A DNA stretch of 64,000 nucleotides from Kiritimatiellia bacterium (GTDB lineage: Bacteria > Verrucomicrobiota > Kiritimatiellia > RFP12 > UBA1067): positions 2,585 through 66,584 of the forward strand of contig JBJEWF010000080.1 of the NCBI GenBank assembly GCA_051884915.1, read 5' to 3'. The translations under genes were made by a program, and so were the position numbers. The notes under the pieces were generated by a model, which was not told the origin of the DNA, did no database searches, and saw nothing but the letters and a program-made list of their open reading frames with translations. This document shows, in pieces, positions 36,901 through 62,751 of the stretch; position 1 is the first letter of the stretch; every line of letters starts with the position of its first letter.

Positions 36901-37899
36901 CACGCCTTCTACGTGGAGGAATCGTACGTCATCCAGTGGATGTATCCGTATCTGAGCCCGCACGGCCTGATCATGAAGATCAACCCCGAGAAGAACCCGA
37001 TAACCGAGTCCATCATCCGGAACGACATGGAGTTCTGGGACTGGTACCAGCGCCGCCTGCTGCGCGACCCGGCTTTCCGCCGCGACTTCCCGGCCCAGAA
37101 GAGCTTCTCGAAGCTCCGCGCCGCCATCGCCGGCCTCTACGCCCATACGGGCCGCATTTCGCTGGCCGACCAGGCCTTCCGCGAGGCCGTTCTGCTCTAT
37201 CCGGCCTCGCCGGAAGCGACCTTCCGCTACGCCCAGGAGGTCCTGATGCCGTCGCGCAAGTGGAACGCCATCGACGATCTGCTCGACTACACGGATCGCG
37301 TCGACCCCAACAACTCGCGCACCGCCCAGTTGCGCGGCTACGTCCGGAAACTTCGGAGCGTCACCGAGACGATCTCCCGCCTTCAGGCCCAGTCGGCCCA
37401 GAAGCCCCTCACCGCCAGCGAGAACATCTCCCTGGCCCAGAACTACCAGGCCATTGGCCAGAGCATGAGCGCGGCGGCCGTGGCGCGCAAGGCCATCGCC
37501 CTTCCCGAAGGCGACCGGTTCGACATCCTCTACCTCGCCGCGCAGATCCTGGCGCAGTGCGGGCAGCGCGGCGACGCCGCCAATGCCATGAAGCGGGCCA
37601 TGCCGAAGTTGCCGCCCGACGTCGACCCGCGCCTGAAAATCGGCATCTCGTCGATTCTGGCTGAAGGCGGACTGCACGCCGAAGCCGATGCGTGCCTGAA
37701 CGACTATCTGCGCGCGCAGCCGCAGGACGTCGACGCCTGGCTGCAGCTGGCCGTCATCAAGGACACCCTTGGCCAGACGCACGCCGCCCAGCAGGCCGTC
37801 GTCCAGGCCTACCAGATCAATCGGGACGCGGCCGCCCAGCGTCTGCAGGCCAGTCCGGAACTCCAGCGCATCGCGGCCCCGCTCTTCCGGCGGCGCTAG
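33976..37899 (+). CDS. DUF2723 / TMEM260-like GT-C-fold glycosyltransferase with many TM helices and C-terminal TPR repeats
   Basis: ATG 33976 (the track start 33949 is a TTG). Family N-terminal block [34 protein letters not shown]. More than 15 hydrophobic helices. TPR-like C-terminal region of about 300 aa. Confidence 0.8.
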   Translation: [1307 protein letters not shown]

Positions 37900-38025: not shown

Positions 38026-39636
38026 CTACTGCGACGCGAAATCCAGATAGCCGGCGTTCCAGGGGCCGATTTCCGGAATCGTCACGAGCTGATCGGCGCC
38101 TTCGGCGCGGATGTCCAGAACCGCCACCGGACGGCGGAGCTCGTGCCAGCGCGCGCGTTTCGCCGCGCCGCCCCGGAAGCGGATCACGACAGGTCCCTGC
38201 GCGTCGATTCGCGTGTTCAGCAGCGCAACGGTCTTGAGCGCGCCGGCCGGCGTCAGACGCGGCACCATCAGTCCCACGAACGGCGACTCAAGGACGGCGG
38301 GCGCAGGATGGGCCGCGCGAGCCTCCTGGACCGTCTGTGAGCCCGCCAGGCAGACGTCCAGTTTGAGGGCGTCCGCCGACAGGTCCCCCAGGTTCCGTCC
38401 CCAGCCGGGCAGAACGGGAATGCCGCAGAGCGCCCACCGGTAGAGCTTAGCCGCCGACAGCCCGTCCGCCGCATACCCCGCGGGGACGGTCCCCTCGTTG
38501 GCCCGGACATATCCCTTCAGGACCGGCGCGGCGTCCGCAAGCGGCTTGAGAATCGTGCGCGCGTAGAGTTCGTCTTTCTCGTAGCGCGTATCCAGCAGCA
38601 GCAGGCTCGTGGCGTTGCAGCCGTAGGCAATCGACATGAAGGACTCCACCAGCGCGCTTTGTCCGCTCCGCGACCCGTAGGCGCGCGGCCAGCTCTCGAC
38701 TTCCGGACACCAGACGTCCACGCAGGGCGCGTCCAGAACCTTGCGCGAACGGGCCGTGGCGAAGGCCTTCACGATCTGGTCGGCCGGATTGACGTCGTAG
38801 TAGAATCCGCCGCCCGGGCGCAGTCCGACCGGCCGGCCGCTCGCCGCATGAAGCGCATCGCGCAACGCCTTGACCGAAGCGACGGCGTGTTCGCCAAAGG
38901 CATGCTGGAGGGCCATGCGCGTTTCCGGCGAGTGGACGCGGAACTCGTCCGCGATGGCCCGCGCGACGTCGGCAATGGCCCGGATCGAGAACGCCTGCCA
39001 CTGCGCCCGCCTGTCCGCGTCCTTCAGCGTCGCCGCCGCCAGCGTCGCGCGCGTCCAGTTCCCGCCCGTCTGGGCGTTGAACGCCGCCACGCAGGTCGCG
39101 CACCAGCATCCGTGCTGGGAGCGGACCGTGGCCGGCGCATGGTTGTCGATGCGCAAATCGTCGTCGATCCACACGCGCTCCGGCCGGAGCCGCGCATAGA
39201 TGCGGGCCATTTCGCGGATGTAGGCGAGAAAAGCGGGCTGGCGCGGGCAGTTGCAGAACCGGTCCTCGACGCCCGTGGAGCCCGTCCATCCCGTCCAGGT
39301 CTTGCCCGAACAGTCCTCGCACGACGAGAGCGCGTCCGAATGGCCCAGCGTCGCCTGGAACTGCAGGCTCGGGACGATTCCCAGCGGACGCAGATCGCCG
39401 GCCGCCCGAAGCAAGCGCGCAACCTGTTCGCGATGCCAGTCCAGCGGCGGCACGCCGATGCCCGTCGAGAACCAGACCTCGTCGCAGCAGCCGGGATTCG
39501 CGGCGATCGCCTGGCGCGTCTTCTCCCACTGCTCGCGGGTGGCCGTATGCGGCCCCCGCAAGCGCAACGACATCACCGGCGGCGGCGCCGCCACCAGCGA
39601 ACACGCCAACGCGCCAACCGCCATCAGACATTTCAT
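38026..39636 (-). CDS. Secreted protein of unknown function, distantly GH42-like (TIM barrel with a Cys cluster)
   Basis: Track ORF trimmed to ATG 39636 (MKCLMAVGALACSLVAA signal peptide). Blocks FCNCPRQPAFLAYIREMARIY and GCWCATCVAAFNAQ resemble the Zn-binding Cys cluster of GH42 beta-galactosidases. Confidence 0.6.
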   Translation of the reverse strand: MKCLMAVGALACSLVAAPPPVMSLRLRGPHTATREQWEKTRQAIAANPGCCDEVWFSTGIGVPPLDWHREQVARLLRAAGDLRPLGIVPSLQFQATLGHSDALSSCEDCSGKTWTGWTGSTGVEDRFCNCPRQPAFLAYIREMARIYARLRPERVWIDDDLRIDNHAPATVRSQHGCWCATCVAAFNAQTGGNWTRATLAAATLKDADRRAQWQAFSIRAIADVARAIADEFRVHSPETRMALQHAFGEHAVASVKALRDALHAASGRPVGLRPGGGFYYDVNPADQIVKAFATARSRKVLDAPCVDVWCPEVESWPRAYGSRSGQSALVESFMSIAYGCNATSLLLLDTRYEKDELYARTILKPLADAAPVLKGYVRANEGTVPAGYAADGLSAAKLYRWALCGIPVLPGWGRNLGDLSADALKLDVCLAGSQTVQEARAAHPAPAVLESPFVGLMVPRLTPAGALKTVALLNTRIDAQGPVVIRFRGGAAKRARWHELRRPVAVLDIRAEGADQLVTIPEIGPWNAGYLDFASQ

Positions 39637-39691
39637 TCTTTCGTTCCCCTTCCGGCCGGAAATCGCCGGGACGACGCCGGCTGGTCCGGCC

Positions 39692-40759
39692 TCAGTTCGC
39701 GGCCAGGCCTTCTGCAAACAGATCGATGCCCCGGAGATTCCGCTCGTTGTTCTCGGCCGTGTCGCACATGGCCCACGGCGCCATCATGAACCCCTTGAGA
39801 CGGGCCGGGGAAATGTGCGCGCGGCCAAACGCGATCAGCTTGCCGATCACGTCGTCCGCATTCTTCTGGTTGCGTTTCCGCTTCCAGCCGACCCAGTTCG
39901 TCCCGCACGGGACCTGGTCGAAGCCGTGCTTCTCCAGCGTGATGAGCTCGCGCAGGCGGAAGGCGTCGGAATTGACCTTGTCGTCAAGCGAGAAGTCGCC
40001 ATCCGCCTCGTCATAGTACCAGCTTCCCTGGAGGACGGACGTGGGGCACTTCGTGAAATACTCCGCGTGATGCCAGCCGTAGTCGGCCCAGTTCCAGGGG
40101 CGCATGCCGTTCTTTTCGCAGGTCCGGACGATGTGGAGGAAATCGTGCCACCAGAGCTCCCCTTTGCGCACGACCACGGCCAGGTTGCGCGGACTCTGCT
40201 CCTGGTGCCGGGTCGTCTCCTCGTCAAACCCGATGTGGAAGAAGCGCGGCGTCCCGAAGATCTCCGCGACGTCGCGGATGAGGTCTTCGCAGACCTGATA
40301 GTACGTGCGGGTCGCCAGCATGAACCGGTAATCGCCCAGCCAGCCGTTGTGCGTCGTCGAGAAATTGAGCTTGGGGATCGCTTCGAGTCCCATCGCCTTG
40401 AGCCGGGCGACCTCGGCTCTCATCCTGTCGGGGGACCAGGCCCCCTTGACGCCGAGTTCCGGGTGGCTCGGATAGGCCAGGGCCTCGCCGATGTCGATGA
40501 CGACCATGTTGAGGCCCCTTGCGGCCGCCCGGTCCGTCGCGGCCCGCCACAAATCCTCCCGGCATTCCAGCTCCGTCGCCAGCGGTTTGAACCCCGCGGC
40601 CGCGACCGTCATGTCCGCAGGCGGCGTCCATCCCCACATGTTGCGCCCGAGATGGAGCAGCACCGACCGGATTTCCCCGGGTCTGGCGGGTTCCTGCGCG
40701 CGCATCCCCGCCGTGGCGGCACCCGCCGCGGCCACCATGAAATCACGTCTCGTCATCAT
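39692..40759 (-). CDS. Tat-exported protein of unknown function, GH20-like TIM-barrel signature
   Basis: Track ORF trimmed to ATG 40759 (MMTRRDFMVAAAGAATAG twin-arginine signal). The FFHIGFDEE block resembles the GH20 HxGxDE catalytic pair. Confidence 0.6.
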   Translation of the reverse strand: MMTRRDFMVAAAGAATAGMRAQEPARPGEIRSVLLHLGRNMWGWTPPADMTVAAAGFKPLATELECREDLWRAATDRAAARGLNMVVIDIGEALAYPSHPELGVKGAWSPDRMRAEVARLKAMGLEAIPKLNFSTTHNGWLGDYRFMLATRTYYQVCEDLIRDVAEIFGTPRFFHIGFDEETTRHQEQSPRNLAVVVRKGELWWHDFLHIVRTCEKNGMRPWNWADYGWHHAEYFTKCPTSVLQGSWYYDEADGDFSLDDKVNSDAFRLRELITLEKHGFDQVPCGTNWVGWKRKRNQKNADDVIGKLIAFGRAHISPARLKGFMMAPWAMCDTAENNERNLRGIDLFAEGLAAN

Positions 40760-40769
40760 GCGTCCAGCC

Positions 40770-43154
40770 TCACTTTCCGTTTGCAAACACGAAGACACGC
40801 ACCGACTCGCCCGGCAGGTCGAGAAGCAGCTGGCGCGGCCGGTCGGCAAACGCCCGCCCTTCGACGCGCTCTTCGACGAGCGGGGCCGAAAACGACAATT
40901 CGGCGCGCTGGGGCTTGTCGGAAAGGTTGTACACGGTCGCATAGCCGTCGCCAAACTGCTCCGTCACGACCTGGGGGTTCGACGACCTGACGAGCCGATT
41001 GACGGGCCGCCATCCCGCCTCGGCCACGAGACGGCACAGCGGAACGTACTTCCGGAACAGCGGGCGGTCGCGATTGTAGAGGTCCGGCCGCGTGAAATAG
41101 TGGCCGGTTGACGCGTTGGCGCTGAAATAGCCCGGGAACATCCCGTAGGCCAACGCGCGCTGCATGAACTTGTCGCTGTATTCGTACGGGAACCGGTCGA
41201 AATCGGTGTTCATCAGGAAGCAGTACGGCTTGCCGCCGCAGAGCGCGCGCCGGTAGAGCAGCGCGTCGTCCGACATGGGCTGCCACGTCCGCGTGCCGTT
41301 CCGCAGGGGATTCCAGTCCGTCTCCGTCCCCATCACGTCGAGGTGGGGCGCCAGCCAGCACCAGCGGTTCGGCGTCGAGTTCGCCATCGCGAACTTCCCG
41401 AGCGCGTGGACGCGCGCGGCGATCCGCCGCACGTACTCGTATGCGATCATTCCCTTGTAGATGCCGGGCGCCAGCGAGTCGCGCGCGAAGGAAAGCGGCG
41501 TGTCCATGCAGCCGAAGTGGGCGCGGTTGAAGTCGAACGTCTCGGTCACGTACATCTCGGCGGAATCGACGTATTCGCCATCGTTCCCCTGCGGGAACGG
41601 CCGCTCCAGCCGGCGCGTAAAGGCCGGGTCGCCGTTCTTCGCCTTCCAGTCCGTCATCTCGCCGACGATGCCGGGGGCCGAATTGACGCTCCACACGACG
41701 CCCTTGCACCACGGCGTGTCCAGCAGACGGCCCCGTTCGCGCCCCCGCACGTCGAGAAAGCGGCTCGTCTCCCATCCGCGGGCCATGGGCACGCCCCGGA
41801 CGGCCAGGCGCCGCGCTTCCGCCACGCCGTCCGTGAGGAGGTCGAGCGCGTTCAGATCGCCCTTCAGCGCCATCCACCACGTACACGGCTCCGTATAGCG
41901 GAAGGTCAGGAAGCCATGTTCGTCGTCCCAGGCCGTCTCGCCGTCGCCCTCCTTGAAGGCGAAGCCGAAATCTTCCCATCGCGCGACCTTGCTGATGGGC
42001 TTGAACGCCATCCAGACGCCCTGGCGCGGCACGCGGACCCGGAACGCCTCCGGATACAGGCGCTGGTAGCTTTCCAGGGCGCCCCGGAAGCCGTCGGCGG
42101 CGGTGAACGGGAACGACACGAACCGGAGATGCGCCTGCGGCCGTTCCGCCGTGAAGCCCAGATCGTATGCGAGCATGAGAACGCGCGCGTTGGCGTTCCC
42201 CAGCACGCGGAAACAGGCCGGGGCCGCGGGATCGATGCCAAGCGCCACGCCCGTCCCCGCCGCCGACACGGCGCCGAACGGCCAGCGCGACAGGAGACCC
42301 CGCCCCACGTCGACGGACAGGGCGTCCATCCGCTCGCCATGGTCCAGCGGACACGACGTGCGCAGGTCGTTGAACCACGTCAGTTCGCCCGCGCCCAGCG
42401 GAAGCGCGTAGATCAGCGTCAGCGCGCGGTCGGCGCGCGTGGTCTCCGTCAGCGTGACGTCATGGGACGTTCCGGCCGCCGCGCCGCCGACGCGTTCCGT
42501 CCGCACCGCCATCCGGAGCCCGAGGGCCTCGTCCGCCAACGCCACATACCCCGTATTCGCCTTGACGTCGCGCAGGAAGAACGCCGGCTCCCGGATCGGC
42601 TTTCCGACGACAACCGCGCATCCGTCGAACATCTGCGCGCCGCGGGCCGCCGGGAAGCGGACCGCGGGCCGCCGGAACCGGACGCAGCCCGGCCGTCCCC
42701 GCTGGAGCTCGTAGACGGCAACCGAACGGACGGGCTTGGCGGGCATGACCGTCACGGTGCGACGCTGCCAGCCGCTGGCGGGATCGGCGTCGAAACCGGC
42801 CTTCTGCCCGTAGAGATGGCTGCCGTCGGCGTACGCGACGTCGAGATAGAGGTTGAAGTCGCCGGACGCGCCGCCGTCCGTGACCGCCCGCCCCTCGGCC
42901 GTCACGGAAAAGGGCCGGGGTTCCGTCTGATCGAGACGCAGCGTCCACCCGGCGCCGCGGGCCACGCGATTCGTGCCGTTGTCGCAGACGATTTCGTCGC
43001 CGTCCCGGACAAATCCGTGGCCAAACCCGCGCGCGCGCTCCCAGGTCAGCGCGGTCGCCTCCGCACTGTCTTCGAGAAGCGGCATCGCCACCTCCGCCGC
43101 ATGCGGACGGCCGCAGACGAGCGCGCCGCAGACAAGAGCCAGGATCATCTTCAT
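40770..43154 (-). CDS. Large secreted protein of unknown function (no family recognised)
   Basis: ATG 43154 (MKMILALVCGALVCG signal peptide, GGAGGA 8 nt upstream). Alternative ATG 43274 has an AAAGGAG site but adds 40 Arg/Ala/Pro-rich residues. Stop lies 10 nt before the next gene. Confidence 0.65.
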   Translation of the reverse strand: MKMILALVCGALVCGRPHAAEVAMPLLEDSAEATALTWERARGFGHGFVRDGDEIVCDNGTNRVARGAGWTLRLDQTEPRPFSVTAEGRAVTDGGASGDFNLYLDVAYADGSHLYGQKAGFDADPASGWQRRTVTVMPAKPVRSVAVYELQRGRPGCVRFRRPAVRFPAARGAQMFDGCAVVVGKPIREPAFFLRDVKANTGYVALADEALGLRMAVRTERVGGAAAGTSHDVTLTETTRADRALTLIYALPLGAGELTWFNDLRTSCPLDHGERMDALSVDVGRGLLSRWPFGAVSAAGTGVALGIDPAAPACFRVLGNANARVLMLAYDLGFTAERPQAHLRFVSFPFTAADGFRGALESYQRLYPEAFRVRVPRQGVWMAFKPISKVARWEDFGFAFKEGDGETAWDDEHGFLTFRYTEPCTWWMALKGDLNALDLLTDGVAEARRLAVRGVPMARGWETSRFLDVRGRERGRLLDTPWCKGVVWSVNSAPGIVGEMTDWKAKNGDPAFTRRLERPFPQGNDGEYVDSAEMYVTETFDFNRAHFGCMDTPLSFARDSLAPGIYKGMIAYEYVRRIAARVHALGKFAMANSTPNRWCWLAPHLDVMGTETDWNPLRNGTRTWQPMSDDALLYRRALCGGKPYCFLMNTDFDRFPYEYSDKFMQRALAYGMFPGYFSANASTGHYFTRPDLYNRDRPLFRKYVPLCRLVAEAGWRPVNRLVRSSNPQVVTEQFGDGYATVYNLSDKPQRAELSFSAPLVEERVEGRAFADRPRQLLLDLPGESVRVFVFANGK

Positions 43155-43347
43155 GCCCACCATCCTCCGGGCGCCTACCGGAAACCGGACCGGCGCCGGA
43201 CAGGAACCGCGACGCGCCGCCGCGCCGCCGGCGGCGACCGGACGGGCGAACGGGGCGGCTGGGATGCGTGTCATGCGGACTCCTTTCGGCGTGTCGTGCG
43301 GGAACGGGCGGCCGGGTCCGCGTCACGGCGGACGCCGGCGCCAGACG

Positions 43348-44937
43348 CTACTTGACGGAGACGATCTTCGCGCGTTCCCCGCCCGCGGCGTCCGTCCACA
43401 TGAGACGGTAGCGTCCCCGGAAACCGCGGAACGCGACGGCGCCGTTGGCGCCGGCCTTCACGGACGTGCGCGTCTTCCACTCGTTGTTGATGAGGTCGTC
43501 CATCGCGAAATAGGCTGTCTTCGGGCGCATGTCGCGCGTGAAGAGGCCGCTGATCGACGGTTCGCCCGGCGCGCCGCAATCGTCCACCACGTTCCACCAG
43601 GTGATGCCGTTCATCTTCTCGACGGCGAACCAGGCGCGGTAGAGGTTGCGCAGGATGATGGCCTGCACCATCTGCCCGCGCGACGAATTGTCCGGCGCCG
43701 TGATCGTGATCTCGCTGAGGTGGATCGGCTTGTTCGCCTTCGAAAGGAGCGCGAAGCGCGCGGCGATGCCCTCGGGGCGCAGGTGCCCGGGGCCCTTGCC
43801 GGCGGCGATGTTCACCGATTCCGCCGGATTGAACAGGTGCATCTGCGAGCCGATCACGTCGATGCGCACGCCGTTCTTCTCCAGGTCCTTGATCTGGTTG
43901 AAGTAGTTCTCGTCCATCGCGTAGTCGTTGATGTTCAGCCAGGCCGATTTCGGCAGGTTGTCCTGCGCCGTCTTGAAGGCGTTGTAGCAGAGGTCGCCCG
44001 CCGTGACGCCGTAGCGCGGACTCTTCTGGAACGGCTTGCCCGTGACGGACTGCCCGTGGAAGTCGGGCGAGGACTCGTTGCAGACGTCCCAGCTCTGCAC
44101 GCGCGTGCCGTACGTCCGCGCAATCTGCTCGACGCGCTTGAACGTGAACTCGTTCAGCTTCGCGAAGTAGGTCGGGCAGAGCCGGGCGACCTCCTCCTCG
44201 GAAAGCTTCGCGAAAATCCGCTTCCAGGACGCCTCCCAGGATACCACGCCCTTCTTCCAGCCTTCGTCGCGCCCGAATTCCTTGACGCCCATCGGCTGGT
44301 GCCAGTCGTGCGCCGGCAGCTTCACGCCCGAAGCGGCCTCAAGGGCCTCCTTCTCGGCCTGGGGACAGAATTCGTCCCAGATCCAGGTCGGCGTCTGCCA
44401 CGCGTTGTTGCCCCAGCAGAGCGGATGGCCGTGGATGCGCAGGTCGCGCGAACGGAGGAAGTTGATGACGGGATCGACGGCGGGACGGCGCCAATGCGGC
44501 TGGTCCTTGGGCTGCGGGCACTGGTTCCAGAAGCCTTCCGTGTCCTGGTAGGCCTCCTGGAAACGGACCTGCCCCTGGTAGGGTTCCAGCGTCTTCCAGT
44601 AGAACGCCACGGTGGCGGAATTGAAGAGCGTGCCGTAAAGCTCCTTGTAGCGGTTGTTCCACTCCGTTTTGCCGAGCTGGTTGTAGTTGAAGATGTGCGC
44701 GCCGAAGAAGAACGCGTGGGAGATCTGCTCGACCTTCACCTCCGTCCCCGCAGGCGCGTCCACGGCGCCCGAAAAATCGGCCTTGCGGTACTTCTCGATG
44801 TCCTCCTTGAGCCGGGCCGTCACTTCGGGATTCCAGATTTTCCAGTATTCGGGCGACATGGCCCCCATGTCGGCATGCCATTCGGCGAACGCGGCAAGCG
44901 CCGTCACGGAACAGGCGCACAAAACGAGTTTCTTCAT
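43348..44937 (-). CDS. GH10-family glycoside hydrolase (endo-beta-1,4-xylanase-like)
   Basis: Track ORF trimmed to ATG 44937 (MKKLVLCACSVTALAAFA). Acid/base block SWDVCNES and nucleophile block IHLSEITI. Confidence 0.8.
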   Translation of the reverse strand: MKKLVLCACSVTALAAFAEWHADMGAMSPEYWKIWNPEVTARLKEDIEKYRKADFSGAVDAPAGTEVKVEQISHAFFFGAHIFNYNQLGKTEWNNRYKELYGTLFNSATVAFYWKTLEPYQGQVRFQEAYQDTEGFWNQCPQPKDQPHWRRPAVDPVINFLRSRDLRIHGHPLCWGNNAWQTPTWIWDEFCPQAEKEALEAASGVKLPAHDWHQPMGVKEFGRDEGWKKGVVSWEASWKRIFAKLSEEEVARLCPTYFAKLNEFTFKRVEQIARTYGTRVQSWDVCNESSPDFHGQSVTGKPFQKSPRYGVTAGDLCYNAFKTAQDNLPKSAWLNINDYAMDENYFNQIKDLEKNGVRIDVIGSQMHLFNPAESVNIAAGKGPGHLRPEGIAARFALLSKANKPIHLSEITITAPDNSSRGQMVQAIILRNLYRAWFAVEKMNGITWWNVVDDCGAPGEPSISGLFTRDMRPKTAYFAMDDLINNEWKTRTSVKAGANGAVAFRGFRGRYRLMWTDAAGGERAKIVSVK

Positions 44938-45001
44938 TCGAGAATTTCCTTCTATGGACAGGACACAACCGCCGGCCGCGGACGCGCAACCGAACACGAA
45001 A

Positions 45002-45025: not shown

Positions 45026-45034
45026 ATTATCCCA
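45026..45034 (-). promoter_or_regulatory. Extended -10 promoter TGgGATAAT for the GH10 gene
   Basis: Minus strand reads TTTTTTTGGGATAATGCC, immediately after a T7 run that follows the nuclease gene. Confidence 0.5.
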
Positions 45035-45081
45035 AAAAAACGGCTGTCCGTCAAATGCGGCCGCGAACGCCCGGTCCGCGG

Positions 45082-45729
45082 CTAGCGGCACCCTTTGCGC
45101 CAGAGCACGGGACTGATCGGCTTTTCTCCCGCCCACAGCCCCCGCCCGGCCTGACGCGCCTGGTTCTGGGCCTCGGAATAGGAGGCGATCCGCCCCTGCG
45201 AAGGCAGATGCCAGGCCCAGCCCTCCCTGACCATCAGAAGGTTCACGTCGATGTCGTGCCCCGGACTGTCCGGCGGCTCGTCCGAAAAACGGGCGTTCGG
45301 CAAGTGGACGACGCCCAGGAGATGGCCGTCGGCGTCCTTTTTCGACCACTCGACGCGGACCATGCGCCCTTCCACCAACTGCTTCAGCCGTTTCATGGCC
45401 TCCGCGCCGAAGGGCTGCCCCGCCTCGGGCGCATCGATCCGCGCCAGGCGGACCCGCCGCGTGAAATTCCCGTCCGGCGTCACGCGCAGCGTGTCGCCGT
45501 CGAGAACGCGCGTGACCCTGCCGTCGAACGGCACGCCCGGACGAACGGGGACCGAACCGTCGCACACGTAGAACGAACCGGGCTTCGGACCCGGCACGCG
45601 CGGCTCCGAGGGATGGCGCGGAAATCCATGCTGGAAACTCCGGTGGAAGGTCGCGCCGCCTCCGGCCGCCGGCAGAAAGCCCAGAAGCGCGGAGACGACG
45701 AGCACGCCGGGTTTCGGGACGCGCGGCAT
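45082..45729 (-). CDS. Secreted staphylococcal-nuclease (SNase/thermonuclease) fold protein
   Basis: ATG 45729, 2 nt after the upstream stop. Signal peptide VLVVSALLGFLPAAGG. SNase blocks LDGDTLRV and VRLARIDAPE. The block expected as DxxGRxLA reads DADGHLLG. Confidence 0.8.
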   Translation of the reverse strand: MPRVPKPGVLVVSALLGFLPAAGGGATFHRSFQHGFPRHPSEPRVPGPKPGSFYVCDGSVPVRPGVPFDGRVTRVLDGDTLRVTPDGNFTRRVRLARIDAPEAGQPFGAEAMKRLKQLVEGRMVRVEWSKKDADGHLLGVVHLPNARFSDEPPDSPGHDIDVNLLMVREGWAWHLPSQGRIASYSEAQNQARQAGRGLWAGEKPISPVLWRKGCR

Positions 45730-45731
45730 CT

Positions 45732-47075
45732 TCACTCCTTTTCGGCGCCGAAGGCGCAGGACGCCGCCAGCAGCTCCTGGGCGGCGGATTCGACTTTCCG
45801 GCGCCTGGCTTCCGCAAAGAACGGCCGCCGGAACGGCGCTTTCAGAATGACCTCCCCCGTTTCCGCCTTCAGGCTTTCCCACGTCTGGAACAGATTGTCG
45901 TGCTTGCCGACGGCGATTTCCTTCCGGAACACCTCCGCATACAGCTGATCGACGGCGCCCGCCAGCTTTTTCCGCAGGAAGAAATCCGCCAGTTTGCCGA
46001 CAGAGAACGCGATGGCCAGGACCAGGCAGCCGGACAGCGCCGCGCCGACGGCGGGCAGCCACGACCCCTGCCCCTGGGAGGAGCCGCGGAGCGCGAAGAA
46101 GACGGAACCGCCCAGCACCAGCGCCAGCAGGAACCCCGCGACCGTGTACACGAACTGGCTGCGCGCCCGGCGCGAGGCCGCTTCGTCCACGACCGCCATG
46201 CGCAGCGAAAGGCCCATGAAGTCGGCATAGGCCGCGGCGACGACGTTGTCCCGCCGGCGCACCTGCGCGTGTTCGAGGACGGACAGCAGTTCGGCGCGGT
46301 GGCGATTGAAGTCCGCGAAGTTCAGCGACGGATCTTCCGGCGTCTTCTCCCGGCCCGAATAGGTCGTGTAGATCTTGGGCAGGTCTTTCGTCTTCAGGAC
46401 GCGCGCGAGATTCCAGCAGACGGCGCCGTACGTCCGCGCAAAATCGTACAGGCTTTTCAGGCAGTCGCACTTGTTCAGGAGGACGCGGAGCTTGAACTCG
46501 CATCCCCGCAGGGCCGTGGCGAAGACGTCGACGGTCTCGCCCGTCGTCCCGGGCTTGTCGGGATCGAAGAGAAAGAAGACCGTATCCGCCAGCAAGGTGA
46601 AGCGGCGGACGGCGCAGGCGAAGTCGTAGTCGCGCGAGACGCCCCCCTTCGCCGAATCGATCATGCCGGGGCTGTCGACGAGCGCGACTTTCTTCAGCAG
46701 CTCGAACGGACGGTACTTCACCGTCAGATGCCGCAGGAACGAGGGCCCCAGAACCTCCAGCGACTTGAATTCCTTCGGCAGGCGGGACAGGGCCGCGGGG
46801 CCGCAGACGTCCTCCGCCGATTCGCCGTGCAGGAGAACCGTGAACGCGTCGTCCGTCGGGGCGACGCCCGTGTCCTGGACGTCCGCGTCCCCCAGAACCC
46901 AGTTGATGAGCGAGGACTTTCCGGACGAGTGGTTGCCCAGGAACAGGACGACGGGGATGCCGCCGGCCGTCACGGACGGGCGGGAGAACGTGTAGTAGTA
47001 GCGCTGGGCCAGCGGGGCGAAGCGGAGGTAGGCCCTGTCCAGTTTTTCCTCGAACTTCTGGAGCGCGTCTTTCAT
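45732..47075 (-). CDS. EHD/dynamin-superfamily NTPase with a C-terminal transmembrane hairpin
   Basis: 447 aa. G1 GNHSSGKSS, switch I APTDDAF, G3 LVDSPGM, G4 NKCD. The segment VSRDYDFACAVRRF...FLFDPDK...LRVLLNKCD...YGAVCWNL tracks the EHD G-domain as I recall it. Two hydrophobic helices: FLLALVLGGSVFFAL and VGAALSGCLVLAIAFSV. Confidence 0.75.
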   Translation of the reverse strand: MKDALQKFEEKLDRAYLRFAPLAQRYYYTFSRPSVTAGGIPVVLFLGNHSSGKSSLINWVLGDADVQDTGVAPTDDAFTVLLHGESAEDVCGPAALSRLPKEFKSLEVLGPSFLRHLTVKYRPFELLKKVALVDSPGMIDSAKGGVSRDYDFACAVRRFTLLADTVFFLFDPDKPGTTGETVDVFATALRGCEFKLRVLLNKCDCLKSLYDFARTYGAVCWNLARVLKTKDLPKIYTTYSGREKTPEDPSLNFADFNRHRAELLSVLEHAQVRRRDNVVAAAYADFMGLSLRMAVVDEAASRRARSQFVYTVAGFLLALVLGGSVFFALRGSSQGQGSWLPAVGAALSGCLVLAIAFSVGKLADFFLRKKLAGAVDQLYAEVFRKEIAVGKHDNLFQTWESLKAETGEVILKAPFRRPFFAEARRRKVESAAQELLAASCAFGAEKE

Positions 47076-47090
47076 CTGGACCCCCTTCGT

Positions 47091-47723
47091 CTAGAACTCC
47101 TTCATGCCGCCGAACGGCGAAAGCGTCACGCCCTCGCCGACGTTCGCGAACGCCGGCGTCCCCGCCGCGATGCGCGCGCGGGCGCCGACCGAAACGCCGG
47201 GACAGGTGCAGGCGTTGGTGGCGATCAGGGCATGCGGCCCCACCGTCGTGTGCCCCGACAGCGTGGCGCCCGGACACACCTGGGAGAAATCGGCGAGCCG
47301 GGAGTCGTGCCCGATTCCGGCGCGGGCGTTGACCAGCACGAACTTGCCGAGCTCCACGCCGACGGAAACGACGGCGCGCGGCCCGATGAACACGCCGTGG
47401 CGGATGTCCGCCGTGGGCGCGACCTCGGCCGAGGGGTCGATCAGCACGGGGAAGTCGTGGCCGCGCAGCCGGCGGTAGATCTTTTCGCGCACGGCGTTGC
47501 TGCCGATGGCGATGAAGACGGCGGCCCCCGGATAGTCGGCGGAGGCCTTCTCGACGGACCCCAGCAGCGGATAGCCGTCCAACGCGCCCTTCGCCTTCCC
47601 GGGGTCGTCGTCGGCAAAGCCGAGAATGCGCCACGTCTCCTCAAGCGCGTTGATGCGTTCCAGCGTCCAGGCGACTTCGCGGCCGAAGCCGCCCGCGCCG
47701 ACGATCATGATTTCTCTTGCCAT
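47091..47723 (-). CDS. NeuD/PglD-family sugar N/O-acyltransferase (left-handed beta-helix)
   Basis: ATG 47723 (the track start 47729 is a GTG), with GGAGG 6 nt upstream. MIVGAGGFGREV Rossmann-like N-terminal domain, then hexapeptide repeats (VFIGPRAVVSVGVELGKFVLVNARAGIGHDSRL). Confidence 0.8.
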   Translation of the reverse strand: MAREIMIVGAGGFGREVAWTLERINALEETWRILGFADDDPGKAKGALDGYPLLGSVEKASADYPGAAVFIAIGSNAVREKIYRRLRGHDFPVLIDPSAEVAPTADIRHGVFIGPRAVVSVGVELGKFVLVNARAGIGHDSRLADFSQVCPGATLSGHTTVGPHALIATNACTCPGVSVGARARIAAGTPAFANVGEGVTLSPFGGMKEF

Positions 47724-47768
47724 TGCCACCTCCGACAGAGTCCCGTGCGTTTTCGCGTCACCAGGGAG

Positions 47769-47796
47769 AGTATACCCGATTCGTCCCCGATTTGAA
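47769..47796 (-). promoter_or_regulatory. Candidate promoter of the acyltransferase/EHD-like/nuclease operon: -35 TTCAAA, 16-nt spacer, -10 TATACT
   Basis: Minus strand reads TTTCAAATCGGGGACGAATCGGGTATACTCTCC, about 45 nt upstream of ATG 47723. Confidence 0.45.
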
Positions 47797-47810: not shown

Positions 47811-47864
47811 AAAAAAAAAAACGCGGCGGCCCCTCGCCCGCGCGCGGCATGGCGGCCGCCGGCG
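47811..47864 (-). terminator. Intrinsic terminator after the RND gene
   Basis: Minus strand: GC-rich arms CGCCGGCGGCC and GGCCGCCGCG form a stem with one bulge, followed by eleven T (A11 at 47811-47821 on the plus strand). Confidence 0.7.
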
Positions 47865-50993: not shown

Positions 50994-51812
50994 CTATTTC
51001 TCTCGCCACCGCCGATGCATCCACAAATACTGCTCCGGATAGCGCCGGATGGCCTCGCCCAGACGGTCGTTGAGCACCTGCGTGCAGGCGGCCCTGTCGG
51101 CGTCGCGGGGGAACGACACCGGTTCGCCGCCGACCAGACGGTAGCGGTAGGGGCCGATCCGGACGAACGACCCCACGACGATCGGACAGCCGGACCGCAT
51201 CGCAAGGCGCGTCGCCGACGTGAACGTCTTGGCCGGGCGTCCCAGGAACGTCAGCGGCAGACCCCTGGACGCGTGCTGGTCGATCAGAATCGTCATGGCC
51301 GCGCGGTCGCCGAGCCACTGGCGGATGACGTCGGGCGTGAAGCCGCGGTTCTTGTCGATGATCGTCACGGGGCCGCGGAAATGGTGCGTCTTCATCCAGC
51401 GCGCCACGAGCTTGTTGTTCATCACGCGGGCGACGGCGATCATCGGCCGCGCCAGCGACAGGAGGTTGGTCGCCGCTTCCCAGACGCCATGGTGCGAACT
51501 GACGATCAGAATGGGCTTGTCGGTCTCCTCCAGCAGCAGGCGGACGGCGGACGGCGCCCCTTCCGACACGTCAAGATGCGCGCGCCAATTGTCCTTCGTG
51601 ATGACGTTCGGAACCCGCAGCGCCTCGCAGACGTGGCCCACCAGATGGCCGAAACTCGTGCGCGCGATCCGGTCGGCCTCCCCGGGATCGTCCGTGATCC
51701 CGGCCTTGAGGATGTTGTCGATCGCGAGTTTGCGCCGCTTCCGGAAAAAGGGATAGAGGAAACGGCCAACGGCGCTTCCCCAGTCGTACGCTTTGCGGTC
51801 CAGCAAGTTCAT
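50994..51812 (-). CDS. LpxL/HtrB-family lipid A (lysophospholipid) acyltransferase
   Basis: 272 aa. The stop directly abuts the RND ATG (0-nt gap). Catalytic block VSSHHGVWEAA (HxxxxE) and EQYLWMHRRW C-terminal block. Confidence 0.8.
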   Translation of the reverse strand: MNLLDRKAYDWGSAVGRFLYPFFRKRRKLAIDNILKAGITDDPGEADRIARTSFGHLVGHVCEALRVPNVITKDNWRAHLDVSEGAPSAVRLLLEETDKPILIVSSHHGVWEAATNLLSLARPMIAVARVMNNKLVARWMKTHHFRGPVTIIDKNRGFTPDVIRQWLGDRAAMTILIDQHASRGLPLTFLGRPAKTFTSATRLAMRSGCPIVVGSFVRIGPYRYRLVGGEPVSFPRDADRAACTQVLNDRLGEAIRRYPEQYLWMHRRWREK

Positions 51813-51907
51813 ATCGAAACCCGAACGCGAACGGGCGGACGGACTCTTCCCGGCGAGATTCCGCCCCTCCCCGGCGACGCGCCCGCCCCGGCCGTCCCCC
51901 CGGCCGG

Positions 51908-53362
51908 TCAGCCGCGGAGGACCTTGTCGTAGTCGAGGCCGTAGCGCGCCAGTTCAAGACGCACGTCGTACTTGCCGCGCGAGAACGGCACCATCAGCTT
52001 GCGGGCCTCGGGACTGCAGGCGTCCTCCTTCTCCGCGCGCCACGCGACCGTCGCGCCGCCCTTCTTGCCGCGGCCGAGTTCCATGCACATCTGGCCCAGG
52101 CAGCAGGCCGTGGAGGAACGCTGCGCCGCCTCGGCGTTCGTGACCGTCAGGTCCGGATCGCCCGCGCGGATCGCCTCCAGCCAGTTGCGCCAGTGGTCGG
52201 CGGAGGTGCGCAGCCTGACGGCCGGGCTGGCGATCGGTTCGAGCAGACGGTTCTTCGAGGCCATCAGCGGCTGCATCTTGCCGTTCGACGGCACGTCGGG
52301 GTCGCTCGGCGTGACTTTCACGGTGCCGCGCATGCAGTAGAGCCACTCGCCCTTCTCGCCGATGAACTTCACGCCCATCGGGAACTTGTCGCACACGTGG
52401 ACGTCGGTCCGGCCCCCGTTGTAGGAATAGTGGAGATCGTAGTGGGTGTGGACGTTCCAGAGCCTGCCGCCCGTCGTGTCCATCCAGCTGCACGTGCCCG
52501 AGACGCCGTCCGGACCCGAATCGTCCTTGCCGAGGCCCCACTGGGCGATGTCGATGTGGTGCGCGCCCCAGTTCGTGATCATGCCCCAGCCGTACGGCGC
52601 CATCTGGATCCAGCCCGGCCGGTCGCCGATTTTCCCGAGGTCCTGCTGGTGCACGCGCGTCCAGTTGTAGGGCGTGACGTCCGCGCCCGGCGTCGGCCCG
52701 AGCCACATGTCGTAGTTGAGGTTGGCGGGAACCGGCTCGACCTTCGAGCTGCCGCCCGACCGGTCGCAGCCGATGCCCACCTCGACGCGCCGGATCTCGC
52801 CGATGCGGCCGTTCGCCACGAGTTCGCACACGAGGTGGAACTGGGGCTTGCTGCGCTGCCAGGACCCGACCTGGACGACGCGATTGCGCATTTTGGCGAG
52901 ATTGGCGATGATGCGGCCTTCCGTGATCGTCTGGGAGAACGGCTTCTGCAGCCAGATGTGCTTGCCGGCCGCGAGCGCCGCGCACGCGACGAGCGTGTGC
53001 CAGTGGTCGGGGATGCAGATCTCGACGGCGTCGATGGACGGGTCGGCCAGCAGGTCGTGGTAGTCGGCGTAGGGCTTGACCTGATAGCCCGGATCCTCCT
53101 TGTAGAGCTTCTTCACGAAGTCGACGCCATGGGCCAGGCGATTCGAGTCGAGATCGCACACGGCGGTGATGCGGCAGAGGTCCTTGTGCCGGGCCGCGAG
53201 CGGCATGTCCATCGTCGTGGAAATGCGGCCGATGCCGATTACGCCGACGTTGACCTTTTCGTTGGCGGCGAACTTGCGGACGCCGCCGACGCAGCCGGAA
53301 AACACGAACGGGGCCGCGAAAGCCGCAGACGCGCCGAGAAAGTGACGACGGTTCATTTGCAT
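51908..53362 (-). CDS. Tat-exported Gfo/Idh/MocA-family oxidoreductase, probably a lipoprotein
   Basis: MQMNRRHFLGASAAFAAPFVFSGC combines a twin-arginine motif with a lipobox. VNVGVIGIGRIS Rossmann motif and LQKPFS block. Alternative ATG at 53356. Confidence 0.85.
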   Translation of the reverse strand: MQMNRRHFLGASAAFAAPFVFSGCVGGVRKFAANEKVNVGVIGIGRISTTMDMPLAARHKDLCRITAVCDLDSNRLAHGVDFVKKLYKEDPGYQVKPYADYHDLLADPSIDAVEICIPDHWHTLVACAALAAGKHIWLQKPFSQTITEGRIIANLAKMRNRVVQVGSWQRSKPQFHLVCELVANGRIGEIRRVEVGIGCDRSGGSSKVEPVPANLNYDMWLGPTPGADVTPYNWTRVHQQDLGKIGDRPGWIQMAPYGWGMITNWGAHHIDIAQWGLGKDDSGPDGVSGTCSWMDTTGGRLWNVHTHYDLHYSYNGGRTDVHVCDKFPMGVKFIGEKGEWLYCMRGTVKVTPSDPDVPSNGKMQPLMASKNRLLEPIASPAVRLRTSADHWRNWLEAIRAGDPDLTVTNAEAAQRSSTACCLGQMCMELGRGKKGGATVAWRAEKEDACSPEARKLMVPFSRGKYDVRLELARYGLDYDKVLRG

Positions 53363-53446: not shown

Positions 53447-54826
53447 TTACGGGTTGGCGCCGTAGAAGCAGAGTCCGCCGTAGGTCCAGTTCGGCCGGGG
53501 CATCCCGGGGAAATTCGCGCGGTCCATCGTCAGCAGGACAAAGCGGAACGGATAGCCCTCCGGCAGTTCCGCCACGCAGGGCCAGACGCGCCCGTTCGCG
53601 CACGTCCCGTCCCACGGCGGAAAGTCGAACGCGAGCCGGCCCTTCATCTTCAGGTCGGGATAGGAATAGACGTAGCAGGCCCTCTCGGCGCTTCCGGTGA
53701 AACAGTAGCGAACGCCATCGATCCACGCAATCGTCGTTCCCGTCGAATCCTGTTCGACCGGCCCGGCGACGTTCACGAAAACGCCGTCCCAGGAGCGGGA
53801 CTGGAGCAGCGACGCGCGGATTCCCCGCGGCGTGAATTCCGAGACGAACAGCGACCACCGCTTCGCCTTCCCGTCCCAGGTGGCGCAGGGATCTTCGTTC
53901 ATCCCCTTGAGCCCCAGCGACTTCGCCCGCATGACGGAAAGGCCGTGCAGCGGGTTCGTCTCGCTCCAGACGGCGTTCACGCCGCCTTCGGCCCGCCGGC
54001 CCAGCTCGGCGGTTCCCGTGGAGAAGTTGCACGCGTAGCCCTTCCAGAACCCGTCCACGTCGTCGTAGAACAGGTGGCTCGCCAGATCGTTGCGCAGTTT
54101 GCCGTCGCCATAGTCGAACAGGACGATTCCCTCCAGCCGCACGTCGAAGAGCGAGGGATCGAAGCTCGCCACCCCCTGGCAGGCGCCGTAGGCCCGGGAG
54201 CTGAACGTGAAGAACGCGCGGCGGCCCTCCATGTACAGGCGGTTTTCGCGTCCCGTCGTCACGAAGCGGACGTCCGCCTGCCCGATTCCCGCCGTCAGCG
54301 ACGCGGCAGCCGCCGTCACGTTGGTCGACACGCAGAACTTGACCGTCTGCAGATTCGTCTTGAGCGACGGCACGAAGCCCGCGGGAATCCGCGCGAGGTC
54401 CAGAAGCGCCGTCCGCCCCGCCTTCGTCGCCAGCACGGCCGGGCGCTGGTCGCCCGTCACCACGACGGACAGGTCGAACGGCACGGCGGGCAGGTCTTTC
54501 GTCGCCGCATCGACCGCCACGCGCATTTTCACGTCGCCCGCCGCCGTCGCGAAGGCGATCTCGGCCGGCAGCGACGTCACGCGCGCCATGTAGCGGGCGG
54601 CCGGCCAGAAGCCGCCGACGACGCGCAGGGCCGCATTGGTCAGCACGGGATACTGGACCGAAGCCGCGACCGCCGTCTCCGGCCTGTACGCGCAGAGCGT
54701 CAGTTCGTTGTCCAGCACGAACCGCCGCGAGGCGAGACGGGCGAACGAGAGCGCGCAGGGATCGAGCGCGGCCAGCGCGGACAGCGTTCCGAACAGCGCG
54801 GCGAGGAAACTAGAATGCCTTCTCAT
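53447..54826 (-). CDS. Secreted protein of unknown function
   Basis: Track ORF trimmed to ATG 54826 (MRRHSSFLAALFGTLSALAAL signal peptide). 459 aa. No family motif recognised. Confidence 0.6.
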   Translation of the reverse strand: MRRHSSFLAALFGTLSALAALDPCALSFARLASRRFVLDNELTLCAYRPETAVAASVQYPVLTNAALRVVGGFWPAARYMARVTSLPAEIAFATAAGDVKMRVAVDAATKDLPAVPFDLSVVVTGDQRPAVLATKAGRTALLDLARIPAGFVPSLKTNLQTVKFCVSTNVTAAAASLTAGIGQADVRFVTTGRENRLYMEGRRAFFTFSSRAYGACQGVASFDPSLFDVRLEGIVLFDYGDGKLRNDLASHLFYDDVDGFWKGYACNFSTGTAELGRRAEGGVNAVWSETNPLHGLSVMRAKSLGLKGMNEDPCATWDGKAKRWSLFVSEFTPRGIRASLLQSRSWDGVFVNVAGPVEQDSTGTTIAWIDGVRYCFTGSAERACYVYSYPDLKMKGRLAFDFPPWDGTCANGRVWPCVAELPEGYPFRFVLLTMDRANFPGMPRPNWTYGGLCFYGANP

Positions 54827-55061
54827 ACTCGCCTTTCTGGACCTTCTTGAAGCAGGAGAAGCCGGCCCGTTTCGCCCGGTAGTGGAGGTCGCTCCGCGAA
54901 TGGCCCAGCCCCGGCGCCTGGATGACGCGGACGATCGCCGCGCCGCAGGCGGGGCAGACGGCCAGCTTCGGGTCGTGGATCGACTGCATGATCTCGAAAC
55001 CGGTCCGGCACTTCGGACACGACTTGTCCGCGGCCTTCGCCTCATAGACGTATGTCGGCAT
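54810..55061 (-). CDS. FmdB-family zinc-ribbon protein
   Basis: 83 aa. MPTYVYEAK...CPKC...CPACG is the FmdB CxxC/CxxC ribbon signature. Its 3' end overlaps the next gene by 17 nt. Confidence 0.75.
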   Translation of the reverse strand: MPTYVYEAKAADKSCPKCRTGFEIMQSIHDPKLAVCPACGAAIVRVIQAPGLGHSRSDLHYRAKRAGFSCFKKVQKGEYEKAF

Positions 55062-58000: not shown

Positions 58001-58470
58001 TCCAGGCAGACCCCGGCGATCCTGCAGACCTTCCCCAGATCGACCGAAACGGTCACGTCGCCGTCGAACTGGACGCTCCCGCGGACCGCGTCCGCCGCCC
58101 GTCCGTCGTTGAGCAGCGTCCGCCGGGGATCCGCATGGACGGCGGCCGGCGGCCGGTCGGTCGCGTAGGTGAACGGGAGGCCTGTCGGCTCCTCGTGGGA
58201 CGCGTCGAAGAGCGCCCGGTAAAGCGGCGCGTCCGTTTCGTCGCGGGGATCGCGGACGACCCGCAGCGTGCCGGCCATGTCCTCGCCCAGATAGGGCCGG
58301 GGCGCGAGCAGAAACACCTTCGCGCCCGCCTCCCGGGCGGCCAGGGCCGCCGCGACGGCCCCCGAAGAGCCGCCGACGACGACAACGTCCGTCTCGTGGA
58401 CGATCGGCAGTTCGGCCGCGGACGCGGAAAGGAAAAGGCAGAGGCAAAGCAGTGGCAGAGGCGTTTTCAT
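55063..58470 (-). CDS. Secreted 1135-aa protein with two FAD-dependent oxidoreductase-like domains, an inserted discoidin-like domain and a C-terminal HEAT-like repeat region
   Basis: Track ORF trimmed to ATG 58470 (MKTPLPLLCLCLFLSASAA). Two dinucleotide-binding motifs, VVVVGGSSGAVAAALAAREAG and LVVGAGTGGGPAGIAAARHG. Helical repeats at the C-terminus. Confidence 0.75.
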   Translation of the reverse strand: MKTPLPLLCLCLFLSASAAELPIVHETDVVVVGGSSGAVAAALAAREAGAKVFLLAPRPYLGEDMAGTLRVVRDPRDETDAPLYRALFDASHEEPTGLPFTYATDRPPAAVHADPRRTLLNDGRAADAVRGSVQFDGDVTVSVDLGKVCRIAGVCLDSFVRVHPRADGTLKGLPAQGYLTRSMAVSTSADGTTWRAAEGVPDVAEAGTDVRRLFLPVRTSCRYVKVFCAKAETYPRQLLGEIRVLAECDGRALASRTTPFLVKRTLDRQLLAAKVPYLTGALVCDVMTDAAGRFAGVVMANRSGRQVVRAKVLVDATPRATAARLAGGEAEPFPAGERAFQRIVISGERPTGEGVSARALTEPFAVPVKNHLKPDFPPVIAARFWLCDVKIPMADGSARAFAAAEQLARDRTFTATQVDAANSLTCLAPDVFRCRATAGTWPGAAALDLRCLQPRGTEGVYVLGPRAGLSDAARESFLKPGALIKTGTRVGRDAAARAGRTARAAAEKTAAGGPALRSGWILGEHQGELAAWAVNATGRVTAADALPVLASCDTLVVGAGTGGGPAGIAAARHGARTIVCEYLYVEGGVQTDGLIGVYWYGNRIGFTREIDEGTRALGSVFPQAKSEWYRSQQRQAGAEIWFGAFANGVVTDGARVVGVVVVMEDGTRGLVTCRNAIDATGNAELPAMAGQDTEFITDDELSLQGVGQAQNTLGVAYANSDIGFLDDTDATDVFYFALRSRLSLPEGTWDQAQVLNSRERRRLVGAFYMGAPDVVNGRTYPDTITRTYSNFDSHGQTRDDLFFIQDPGHQPMYVNLPYRCLLPKTLDGLLVTGLGISAHRDAMPILRMQPDIQNQGYAAGTAAALAVKNGTTVRNVDIKALQRHLVEKGILREEDTATADSFPLPDAAFRQATADLADGYGGLPVLMTDRSRALPLLLAAWQTAEGEGKFIYAHVLAMLGRPDGAEQVLARFKAADWDKGWNYRGMGQFNRSVSWMDSYAIALGHAQYRPAVPALIAKADLLTQTSEYSHFRAIAKALEELGDASAAPALAAVLKRPGIGGHWQTMGPEPPGIPGYKNAAGDWERTLSLREICIARALYRLGDTPEGLGRKTLEAYAADPRGAFARHAKLVLGRK

Positions 58471-58544
58471 GGCGTTTGGGCGGTGGCGGATTGGAGTTGA
58501 CGTGAAACCCTTTCGGTCGCGGCGCCGGCGGCGGACCGGAACCG

Positions 58545-62674: not shown

Positions 62675-62751
62675 GCCCCTGTAGCTCATCTGGACAGAGC
62701 AATTGCCTTCTAAGCAATGGGTAGTGAGTTCGAGTCTCGCCAGGGGCGCCA
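62675..62751 (+). tRNA. tRNA-Arg, anticodon TCT, CCA encoded
   Basis: Hand-folded cloverleaf. Acceptor GCCCCTG/CAGGGGC, D arm GCTC/GAGC, anticodon arm ATTGC-CTTCTAA-GCAAT, T arm GTGAG-TTCGAGT-CTCGC, discriminator G, then CCA. Confidence 0.9.

Follow-up and report, generated by a model that had tools for sequence, protein, structure and literature searches.

An MfnL-family dynamin-like protein of a Kiritimatiellia bacterium and the clade-limited gene triad in which it is encoded

We analyzed a 64,000-nucleotide (nt) stretch of DNA from a Kiritimatiellia bacterium (assembly GCA_051884915.1, contig JBJEWF010000080.1, positions 2,585-66,584), hereafter the window, with attention to a unit of three genes at 45082-47796. 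All three share the minus strand, in head-to-tail order from 47729 down to 45082, and encode a PglD/NeuD-family acetyltransferase, a dynamin-superfamily nucleoside triphosphatase (NTPase), and a nuclease of the staphylococcal nuclease (SNase) fold. The NTPase adds a new member to the known MfnL family, and the three-gene system that a first-pass annotation of this DNA had proposed is without support. That annotation knew of no described pathway for such a combination; the NTPase family, however, has already been described as MfnL, with bacterial members in the Planctomycetota-Verrucomicrobiota-Chlamydiota (PVC) group, and the module itself is not conserved. We consider it likely that the three products are envelope related but act independently, from genes that are probably co-transcribed and do not make up a dedicated system.

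The NTPase as a bacterial MfnL protein

The MfnL family of the dynamin superfamily was defined by Morel et al. around TbMfnL of Trypanosoma brucei (Tb927.7.2410), which has a G domain and two C-proximal transmembrane segments, and its members are known from the mitochondria of protists as well as from PVC bacteria and Proteobacteria (bioRxiv 10.1101/2023.06.28.546890). In that work, TbMfnL was located to the inner mitochondrial membrane of the trypanosome, on the side that faces the matrix, and its overexpression raised mitochondrial branching only when the P-loop lysine was intact. The bacterial MfnLs named there come from Kiritimatiellae, Lentisphaerae, Pedosphaera, Planctomycetaceae, Gammaproteobacteria, and Rhodobacterales (Rubrimonas); the authors describe them as uncharacterized and regard a plasma membrane anchorage with a cytosol-facing orientation as probable, and the paper reports no gene neighborhoods (bioRxiv 10.1101/2023.06.28.546890).

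The NTPase gene (45732..47075, minus strand) encodes a protein of 447 amino acids (aa) that GenBank lists as a "dynamin family protein" (P0001). Its membership of the MfnL family is directly verified, because the product of locus L033, which is similar to it over its full length (45% identity over residues 5-431, E = 1e-122), is exactly NLB69313.1, the "LdMfnL" of Morel et al. A euglenid MfnL (P0286) aligns with residues 38-332, from the G domain into the first transmembrane helix, with E = 9e-66. Along with this full-length similarity, the NTPase possesses a dynamin G domain with motifs G1 to G4 and two consecutive C-proximal transmembrane segments, and so has in common with TbMfnL the whole architecture of G domain, helical region, paired transmembrane segments, and C-terminal tail. 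Its predicted orientation, in which the G domain faces the cytoplasm (equivalent to the mitochondrial matrix), agrees with that of TbMfnL. As expected in bacteria, it has no mitochondrial presequence.

Pfam matched Dynamin_N in the NTPase at 2.5e-8. The motifs GNHSSGKSS (G1), APTDD (containing the switch-I Thr, T74), DSPG (G3), and NKCD (G4) are all present and are invariant in 32 relatives, in whose alignment the mean column identity is 63%. Hydrophobic 19-mers at residues 311-329 and 342-360 (Kyte-Doolittle values of 2.25 and 2.11, respectively) recur at equivalent positions in the relatives. The domain order is an EHD-like G domain (~17-240), a helical stalk, the transmembrane hairpin made up of these two segments, and conserved C-terminal helices. 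An AlphaFold2 (AF2) model built from the 32 relatives (pLDDT 87, pTM 0.82) has an N-terminal helix and the G domain, with the hydrophobic pair at the tip of an extended helical hairpin (270-332 and 339-373). Both the G motifs and the two-helix membrane hairpin had been claimed in the first-pass annotation, and both are borne out by these data.

Homologs of the NTPase number more than 1,773, fall into 1,473 clusters at 50% identity, and occur in 193 GTDB species representatives. The loci are deposited under Kiritimatiellia, Lentisphaerae, Verrucomicrobia (including Pedosphaera), Planctomycetota, some Gammaproteobacteria, Rhodobacterales, and Methylomirabilota. The taxa named in the MfnL paper are represented among them, which lends further support to family membership, and the broader spread (PVC group, Proteobacteria, Euglenozoa/SAR eukaryotes) is likewise common to both. 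Two long matches carrying organism names are protist proteins, from Pythium brassicae and the euglenid Jenningsia, with presequence-like N termini and a G-domain-plus-hairpin build by which we assign them to MfnL as well. No EH domain was detected in 20 proteins of 500-850 aa that were tested, and no eukaryotic EHD appeared among the top 150 representative matches. Judged by the number of homologs and clusters, the range of species, the column identity, and the invariance of the G motifs, bacterial MfnL is a core rather than an accessory gene. Two further loci, L022 and L025, are deposited as "Clostridiales bacterium CCNA10" and "Lachnospiraceae bacterium," and their MfnLs are 59-65% identical to the Kiritimatiellia protein, which probably reflects a binning or labeling error.

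It was also claimed at the outset that the NTPase follows the G domain of eukaryotic EHD ATPases rather than that of classical bacterial dynamins, and all three of our comparisons agree. Searching the PDB by phmmer returned EHD2 (1.2e-33) and EHD4 (5e-30), both matching residues 17-238, followed only at 0.057 by a dynamin-like protein (DLP) from C. jejuni. A family-profile search widened the gap: EHD2 reached 6.8e-40, while the C. jejuni DLP stayed at 0.0045, BDLP at 0.55, and mitofusin-1 at 0.79. Foldseek, which had been suggested as a check on the structural model, placed EHD4 or EHD2 at ranks 1-5 for the AF2 model (3e-15 to 1.5e-12), with a TM-score of 0.64 to membrane-bound EHD4 (7sox_A); BDLP, IniA, DynA/B, and mitofusins came after the EHDs. 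Members of the EHD family (EHD1-4, RME-1) are thus the closest solved structures in sequence (1e-33 to 7e-40) as well as in fold. In EHDs, as in the NTPase, an N-terminal helix joins the helical domain. Residue W221, in the helix after G4, is invariant and aligns with W238 of EHD2, a residue which we take to have a role in EHD dimerization.

There are, however, clear differences. The NTPase has no Pfam match to EH, EHD_N, or DUF5600 at E ≤ 0.1, in line with the earlier claim that it lacks an EH domain. Where EHDs have a polybasic membrane-binding tip, the NTPase has its transmembrane hairpin, and the invariant motif DP[DE]KPGTTGE is missing from EHD2. In EHDs, a Met directly after the NKxD motif excludes guanine and makes the proteins ATP specific (PMC5084822). 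The NTPase has Cys205 at this position, which is variable in the MfnL family (A, M, T, L, S, V, G, or R in the relatives), so that the NTPase may prefer either GTP or ATP. The NTPase resembles an EHD yet is not an EHD proper. This is illustrated by two true EH-less EHD relatives, P0372 (678 aa) and P0373 (639 aa), which unlike the NTPase do match DUF5600 and EHD_N in addition to Dynamin_N. In these two proteins, which are the best EHD2 matches in our protein set (182-192 bits), long Q/P/M-rich low-complexity tails replace the EH domain.

Bacterial MfnLs are widespread in the PVC group and uncharacterized, and the nearest match to their G domain, by a wide margin, is that of eukaryotic EHD ATPases. 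When the mouse EHD2 G domain was compared with bacterial MfnLs, P0254 scored 154 bits, and proteins from Planctomycetota and Gammaproteobacteria scored 135-147 bits, with loci L079, L069, and L061 at 138-147 bits; the two named protist MfnLs were not among the top 60 matches. This pattern hints at a sister-group relationship between EHDs and bacterial MfnLs. If there is one, EHD-type scission proteins may have their origin in a membrane-anchored dynamin of bacteria, and a culturable PVC bacterium would offer a simple model of the ancestral mechanism. We found no such link in the literature that we consulted: the term "EHD" occurs 0 times in the MfnL-defining paper, a 2026 review of EHDs mentions no prokaryotes, and a search for "EHD-like" or prokaryotic EHD proteins returned nothing relevant, its one match being a hydrogenase named Ehd.

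Other membrane-anchored members of the superfamily are more remote. Atlastin/Sey1, mitofusin/Fzo1, and BDLP, a group of hairpin-anchored dynamins (PMC5084822), are comparable with the NTPase in being anchored in the membrane. BDLP and the mitofusins follow the EHDs in the structural search, but the sequence similarity of BDLP and mitofusin-1 to the NTPase is negligible. "Mitofusin-like" is a label for an architecture and not for an ancestry. The bacterial proteins LeoA/LeoBC (Eleos) and DynA also belong to the dynamin superfamily and are implicated in vesicle release, membrane repair, and phage defense. Those proteins occur as pairs, triples, or fused tandems, whereas the window gene is single and has the genomic surroundings of a core gene.

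Gene neighborhoods of MfnL loci

We surveyed the neighborhoods of MfnL genes in 79 loci of GTDB species representatives, which included flanks of up to 6 kb, using tblastn and phmmer with the proteins of the window and of L080. For neighbor counts, all six-frame open reading frames (ORFs) were clustered, and Pfam was run on the best-scoring adjacent ORFs (67 upstream, 56 downstream). By either search, an SNase gene adjoined the MfnL gene in none of the 79 loci, and an acetyltransferase gene did so in three (L004, L005, and L009). The most frequent upstream neighbors were adenylate kinase (adk; 17/67), Aldedh/ProA-like (7/67), and PglD (5/67) genes; downstream, TsaB-like (11/56) and HisA (3/56) genes led an otherwise varied set. 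A search for conserved partner genes yielded only clade-specific housekeeping neighbors (adk, tsaB-like, proA-like, and hisA), and no partner was accepted. The expectation that nuclease and acyltransferase genes recur beside homologs of the NTPase was therefore largely not borne out.

The full triad was found only in the window, L080, and L081/L082 (NTPase 73% identical), L081 and L082 being 99% identical to each other. In a neighbor-joining tree, the triad carriers fall into one clade, and nested within it are L001/L049, whose MfnL genes lack both neighbors. Because the triad lineages are monophyletic, we count them as one evolutionary event. As the neighbors of MfnL vary and the triad is confined to one narrow clade, we attribute the adjacency to dense co-directional genome packing combined with a single lineage-specific event. 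The arrangement of nuclease, dynamin, and acyltransferase is local and deserves little weight as a system. With the partners missing from L001/L049 and with PglD orthologs that have no dynamin beside them (see below), the claim of a dedicated three-gene pathway or module is not supported.

A different arrangement was seen in a Lentisphaerae/Kiritimatiellia subclade (L033-L057; e.g., L034:4008-8017), where a four-gene order places a coiled-coil protein (17 loci), adenylate kinase (19 loci), MfnL, and a TsaB-like protein (14 loci) in succession. The coiled-coil protein is ~370 aa long and membrane anchored, and it belongs to no Pfam family.

Acetyltransferase, nuclease, and readings of the triad

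The acetyltransferase gene (47091..47723, minus strand) encodes 210 aa from an ATG that is preceded by GGAGG. An in-frame GTG at 47729 is a less likely start, and the product from the ATG at 47723 matches the 210-aa GenBank protein P0420. Pfam identified PglD_N (4.4e-16) and Hexapep (4e-12), the combination of N-terminal domain and hexapeptide left-handed beta-helix that is likewise found in PglD, NeuD, and VioB. Against TIGR03570 (NeuD/PglB/VioB), the protein scored 160.8 bits, which is exactly the curated cutoff of 160.8 and hence borderline. The PglD assignment is nonetheless supported by its orthologs (more than 490 at E ≤ 1e-30, many of them 63-88% identical), of which sampled ones adjoin Bac_transf (PglC-like) and DegT (PglE-like) genes; others adjoin WaaA-like/Kdo-transferase genes. 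In the window, the usual glycan partner genes are not adjacent to the acetyltransferase gene.

Three ortholog clusters sampled from the PglD side (63-75% identical) had glycan-synthesis surroundings, no dynamin, and junctions as tight as those of the window. Their gene arrays were RND-Bac_transf-PglD-MiaB-like, DegT-Bac_transf-PglD-GH2, and amidase-PglD-WaaA-like (Kdo-transferase), and the first of these has its pump-PglD synteny in common with the window. As such arrays are equally tight with unrelated genes, close packing with whatever gene comes next appears to be normal for a PglD gene. A 436-aa Pfam-less protein in L084 was considered as a hidden MfnL near a PglD ortholog but proved to be unrelated. 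It is also worth pointing out that in the L084-L089 orthologs a PglC-like Bac_transf gene precedes the PglD-like gene, preceded in L084 also by the same RND pump gene as in the window, and that in L088/L089 a Kdo-transferase-like gene follows. In the window, the Bac_transf gene before the PglD-like gene is absent, and a terminator and a promoter-like site take its place.

The nuclease gene (45082..45729, minus strand) encodes 215 aa, listed in GenBank as a "thermonuclease family protein" (P0121). The earlier description of an exported SNase-fold nuclease is upheld as to the fold by a match to PF00565 (1e-17; domain at ~residues 70-205). As to export, the N terminus carries two positive charges ahead of a hydrophobic segment (residues 8-22), and this pattern of charge and hydrophobicity is consistent with a Sec-type signal. 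Alignment with the Staphylococcus aureus nuclease shows that DGDT, the equivalent of Arg35, and D-x-P-E (the equivalents of Asp40 and Glu43) are kept, while Arg87 and the Tyr positions could not be reliably aligned. On visual inspection, His appears to stand where the catalytic Arg87 would be expected (DADGHLLG, ~residues 135-145). The window protein has in common with staphylococcal nuclease/thermonuclease an SNase domain with the Ca-binding/catalytic DGDT...R...D-x-P-E pattern and a putative export signal, to which it adds a conserved Pro-rich linker of ~45 aa (~residues 26-70; TFHRSF..GFP..PSEP...VPVRPGVPF) between signal and domain, which is common to L080. Only three close relatives of the nuclease were found (73-77% identical), each of them encoded downstream of MfnL. 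After these comes a relative of 44% identity, whose gene adjoins a two-component system, not MfnL.

If the three products act independently, as we consider likely, their roles may be envisaged as follows. The MfnL hairpin, at the stalk's tip, would anchor the protein in the cytoplasmic membrane, with the EHD-like G domain and the helical stalk on the cytoplasmic side and the C-terminal helices returning to the cytoplasm. By analogy with TbMfnL, EHD oligomers, atlastin, mitofusin, and BDLP, nucleotide-dependent dimerization or oligomerization of the G domain could then tether, bend, or fuse the cytoplasmic membrane from the inside. Because MfnL shows wide, apparently vertical conservation in housekeeping gene surroundings, we argue for a core role in membrane maintenance or shaping. 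The PglD-type enzyme would N-acetylate a UDP-amino sugar for an envelope glycan, and the Sec-exported thermonuclease would degrade or scavenge extracellular or periplasmic nucleic acid. The arrangement itself may have arisen in one small Kiritimatiellia clade, when a nuclease gene was gained downstream of an older adjacency of acetyltransferase and MfnL genes.

Several observations weigh against this reading. The triad has very tight or overlapping junctions in three species-level lineages (window, L080, and L082) that share only ~71-73% DNA identity and differ in their flanks. The SNase subfamily with the Pro-rich linker occurs only in the triad, in 3/3 species. In addition, the membrane-remodeling role of bacterial MfnL is drawn wholly by analogy, and the neighbor calls in the GTDB loci used a home-made coding-potential heuristic by which some genes were missed. 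The tight junctions and the restricted SNase subfamily leave some room for a functional link between the triad genes within the clade of the window, although the monophyletic lineages count as one event.

The strongest form of such a link would be a true module of the Kiritimatiellia clade, comparable to LeoA, in which dynamin-driven budding or vesiculation frees the nuclease, perhaps on a glycan-modified envelope. The conserved order and coupling just described favor this explanation (in L080 and L082 the genes are 1 nt apart or overlap by 4 nt, and in the window they are separated by 15 and 2 nt), as does the restriction of the close SNase subfamily to the triad; a role in vesicle-associated toxin release has also been proposed for LeoA (PMC5084822). 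Yet the arrangement has a single evolutionary origin, an SNase gene adjoins MfnL in none of the 79 other species, and L001/L049 retain MfnL within the same clade without either partner. Moreover, a cytoplasm-facing G domain and a periplasmic or extracellular nuclease would lie on opposite sides of the membrane, and PglD orthologs stand in equally tight arrays with unrelated genes. We therefore regard a true module as unlikely. Its mechanistic version, in which MfnL has been recruited to a working envelope module and buds vesicles or opens a release route for the nuclease at a surface modified by the acetyltransferase, seems to us quite doubtful; if true, it would provide the first function for any bacterial MfnL or EHD-like dynamin.

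Alternatively, the acetyltransferase and MfnL might be an older functional pair, for instance one that couples glycan synthesis to membrane remodeling, with the nuclease as a later passenger. Tight PglD-MfnL adjacency is indeed seen both in the window clade and in L004, L005, and L009 (MfnL 54-56% and PglD 67-69% identical). Both lineages, however, belong to the same larger subclade, and between them lie L013, L017, L022, L002/3, and L001/49, which lack the pair. PglD accounts for only five of the 67 upstream neighbors, and 0/3 of the ortholog clusters sampled from the PglD side adjoin MfnL, so that a functional pair is improbable as well.

An anti-phage or anti-plasmid defense system, Eleos-like or new, with a dynamin-like sensor/effector and a nuclease effector, had been raised in the first-pass annotation together with a check by PADLOC, and we reject it as highly implausible: dynamin-like proteins do occur in Eleos (LeoABC), nucleases are common defense effectors, and the SNase matches the PADLOC candidate model SNc+LTD (1e-6), but PADLOC recognized no defense system and gave nothing beyond a P-loop match to LeoA (E = 0.013; 31 residues, 35-65), there is no LeoB, LeoC, or second dynamin gene in the window such as Eleos requires, the wide, apparently vertical distribution of MfnL in housekeeping surroundings is unlike that of patchy defense genes, an exported nuclease would not meet cytoplasmic phage DNA, and no mobile-element or defense-island genes lie around the unit, whose GC content is unremarkable.

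Boundaries of the unit and the wider window

The three gene calls and their domain assignments agree with the ORF coordinates and Pfam matches, and the operon-like packing is confirmed, with the genes on the same strand and separated by 15 and 2 nt. A Shine-Dalgarno-like purine run precedes each gene. The three genes are probably carried on one transcript, as this packing suggests.

The boundary signals described earlier are also present, as pattern matches only. Upstream, an RND (AcrB-type) pump gene (ACR_tran, 1.8e-285) ends in a UAG stop that is directly followed by a GC-rich hairpin with a U11 run resembling an intrinsic terminator (47811..47864, minus strand). Its fold energy is unremarkable for its GC content (z = +1.6), and the identification therefore rests on the pattern of hairpin and U run. 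A weak sigma-70-like promoter candidate for the unit lies at 47769..47796 on the minus strand (TTCAAA-16-TATACT, 9/12), although the promoter rules of the host phylum may differ. The 3' boundary is marked by a promoter-like site at 45026..45054 on the minus strand (TTGACG-17-GATAAT with TG, 10/12), assigned to the gene for a GH10 glycoside hydrolase at 44940..43348 (GH10 match, 1.8e-29). The stretch from the SNase stop codon to this site contains short hairpins and a U7 run.

The composition of the unit is unremarkable. No mobile-element or RNA features were found near it, the only RNA gene detected in the window by ARAGORN and Rfam being a tRNA-Arg(TCT) at 62675-62751 on the plus strand. Directly upstream of the RND pump, at 50994-53362 on the minus strand, are a Lip_A_acyltrans-like gene (5e-24) and a GFO/IDH/MocA oxidoreductase gene. 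Because a lipid A acyltransferase-like gene and an RND pump adjoin, the wider neighborhood appears to be related to the envelope and lipopolysaccharide.

Four ORFs of the window have no Pfam family at E ≤ 1e-5, namely, 34464-37664 (plus strand; 1,066 aa), 38026-39717 (minus strand; 563 aa), 40770-43157 (minus strand; 795 aa), and 53447-55045 (minus strand; 532 aa). Given a GC content of 65-70%, some of these may be shadow ORFs. Finally, a 1,447-aa ORF at 55063-59406 on the minus strand contains four separate FAD_oxidored stretches (3e-59) together with Pyr_redox_2 and FAD_binding_2 fragments and apparently encodes an unusually large, multimodule flavoprotein; a 705-aa FAD_oxidored protein is also encoded in L083.

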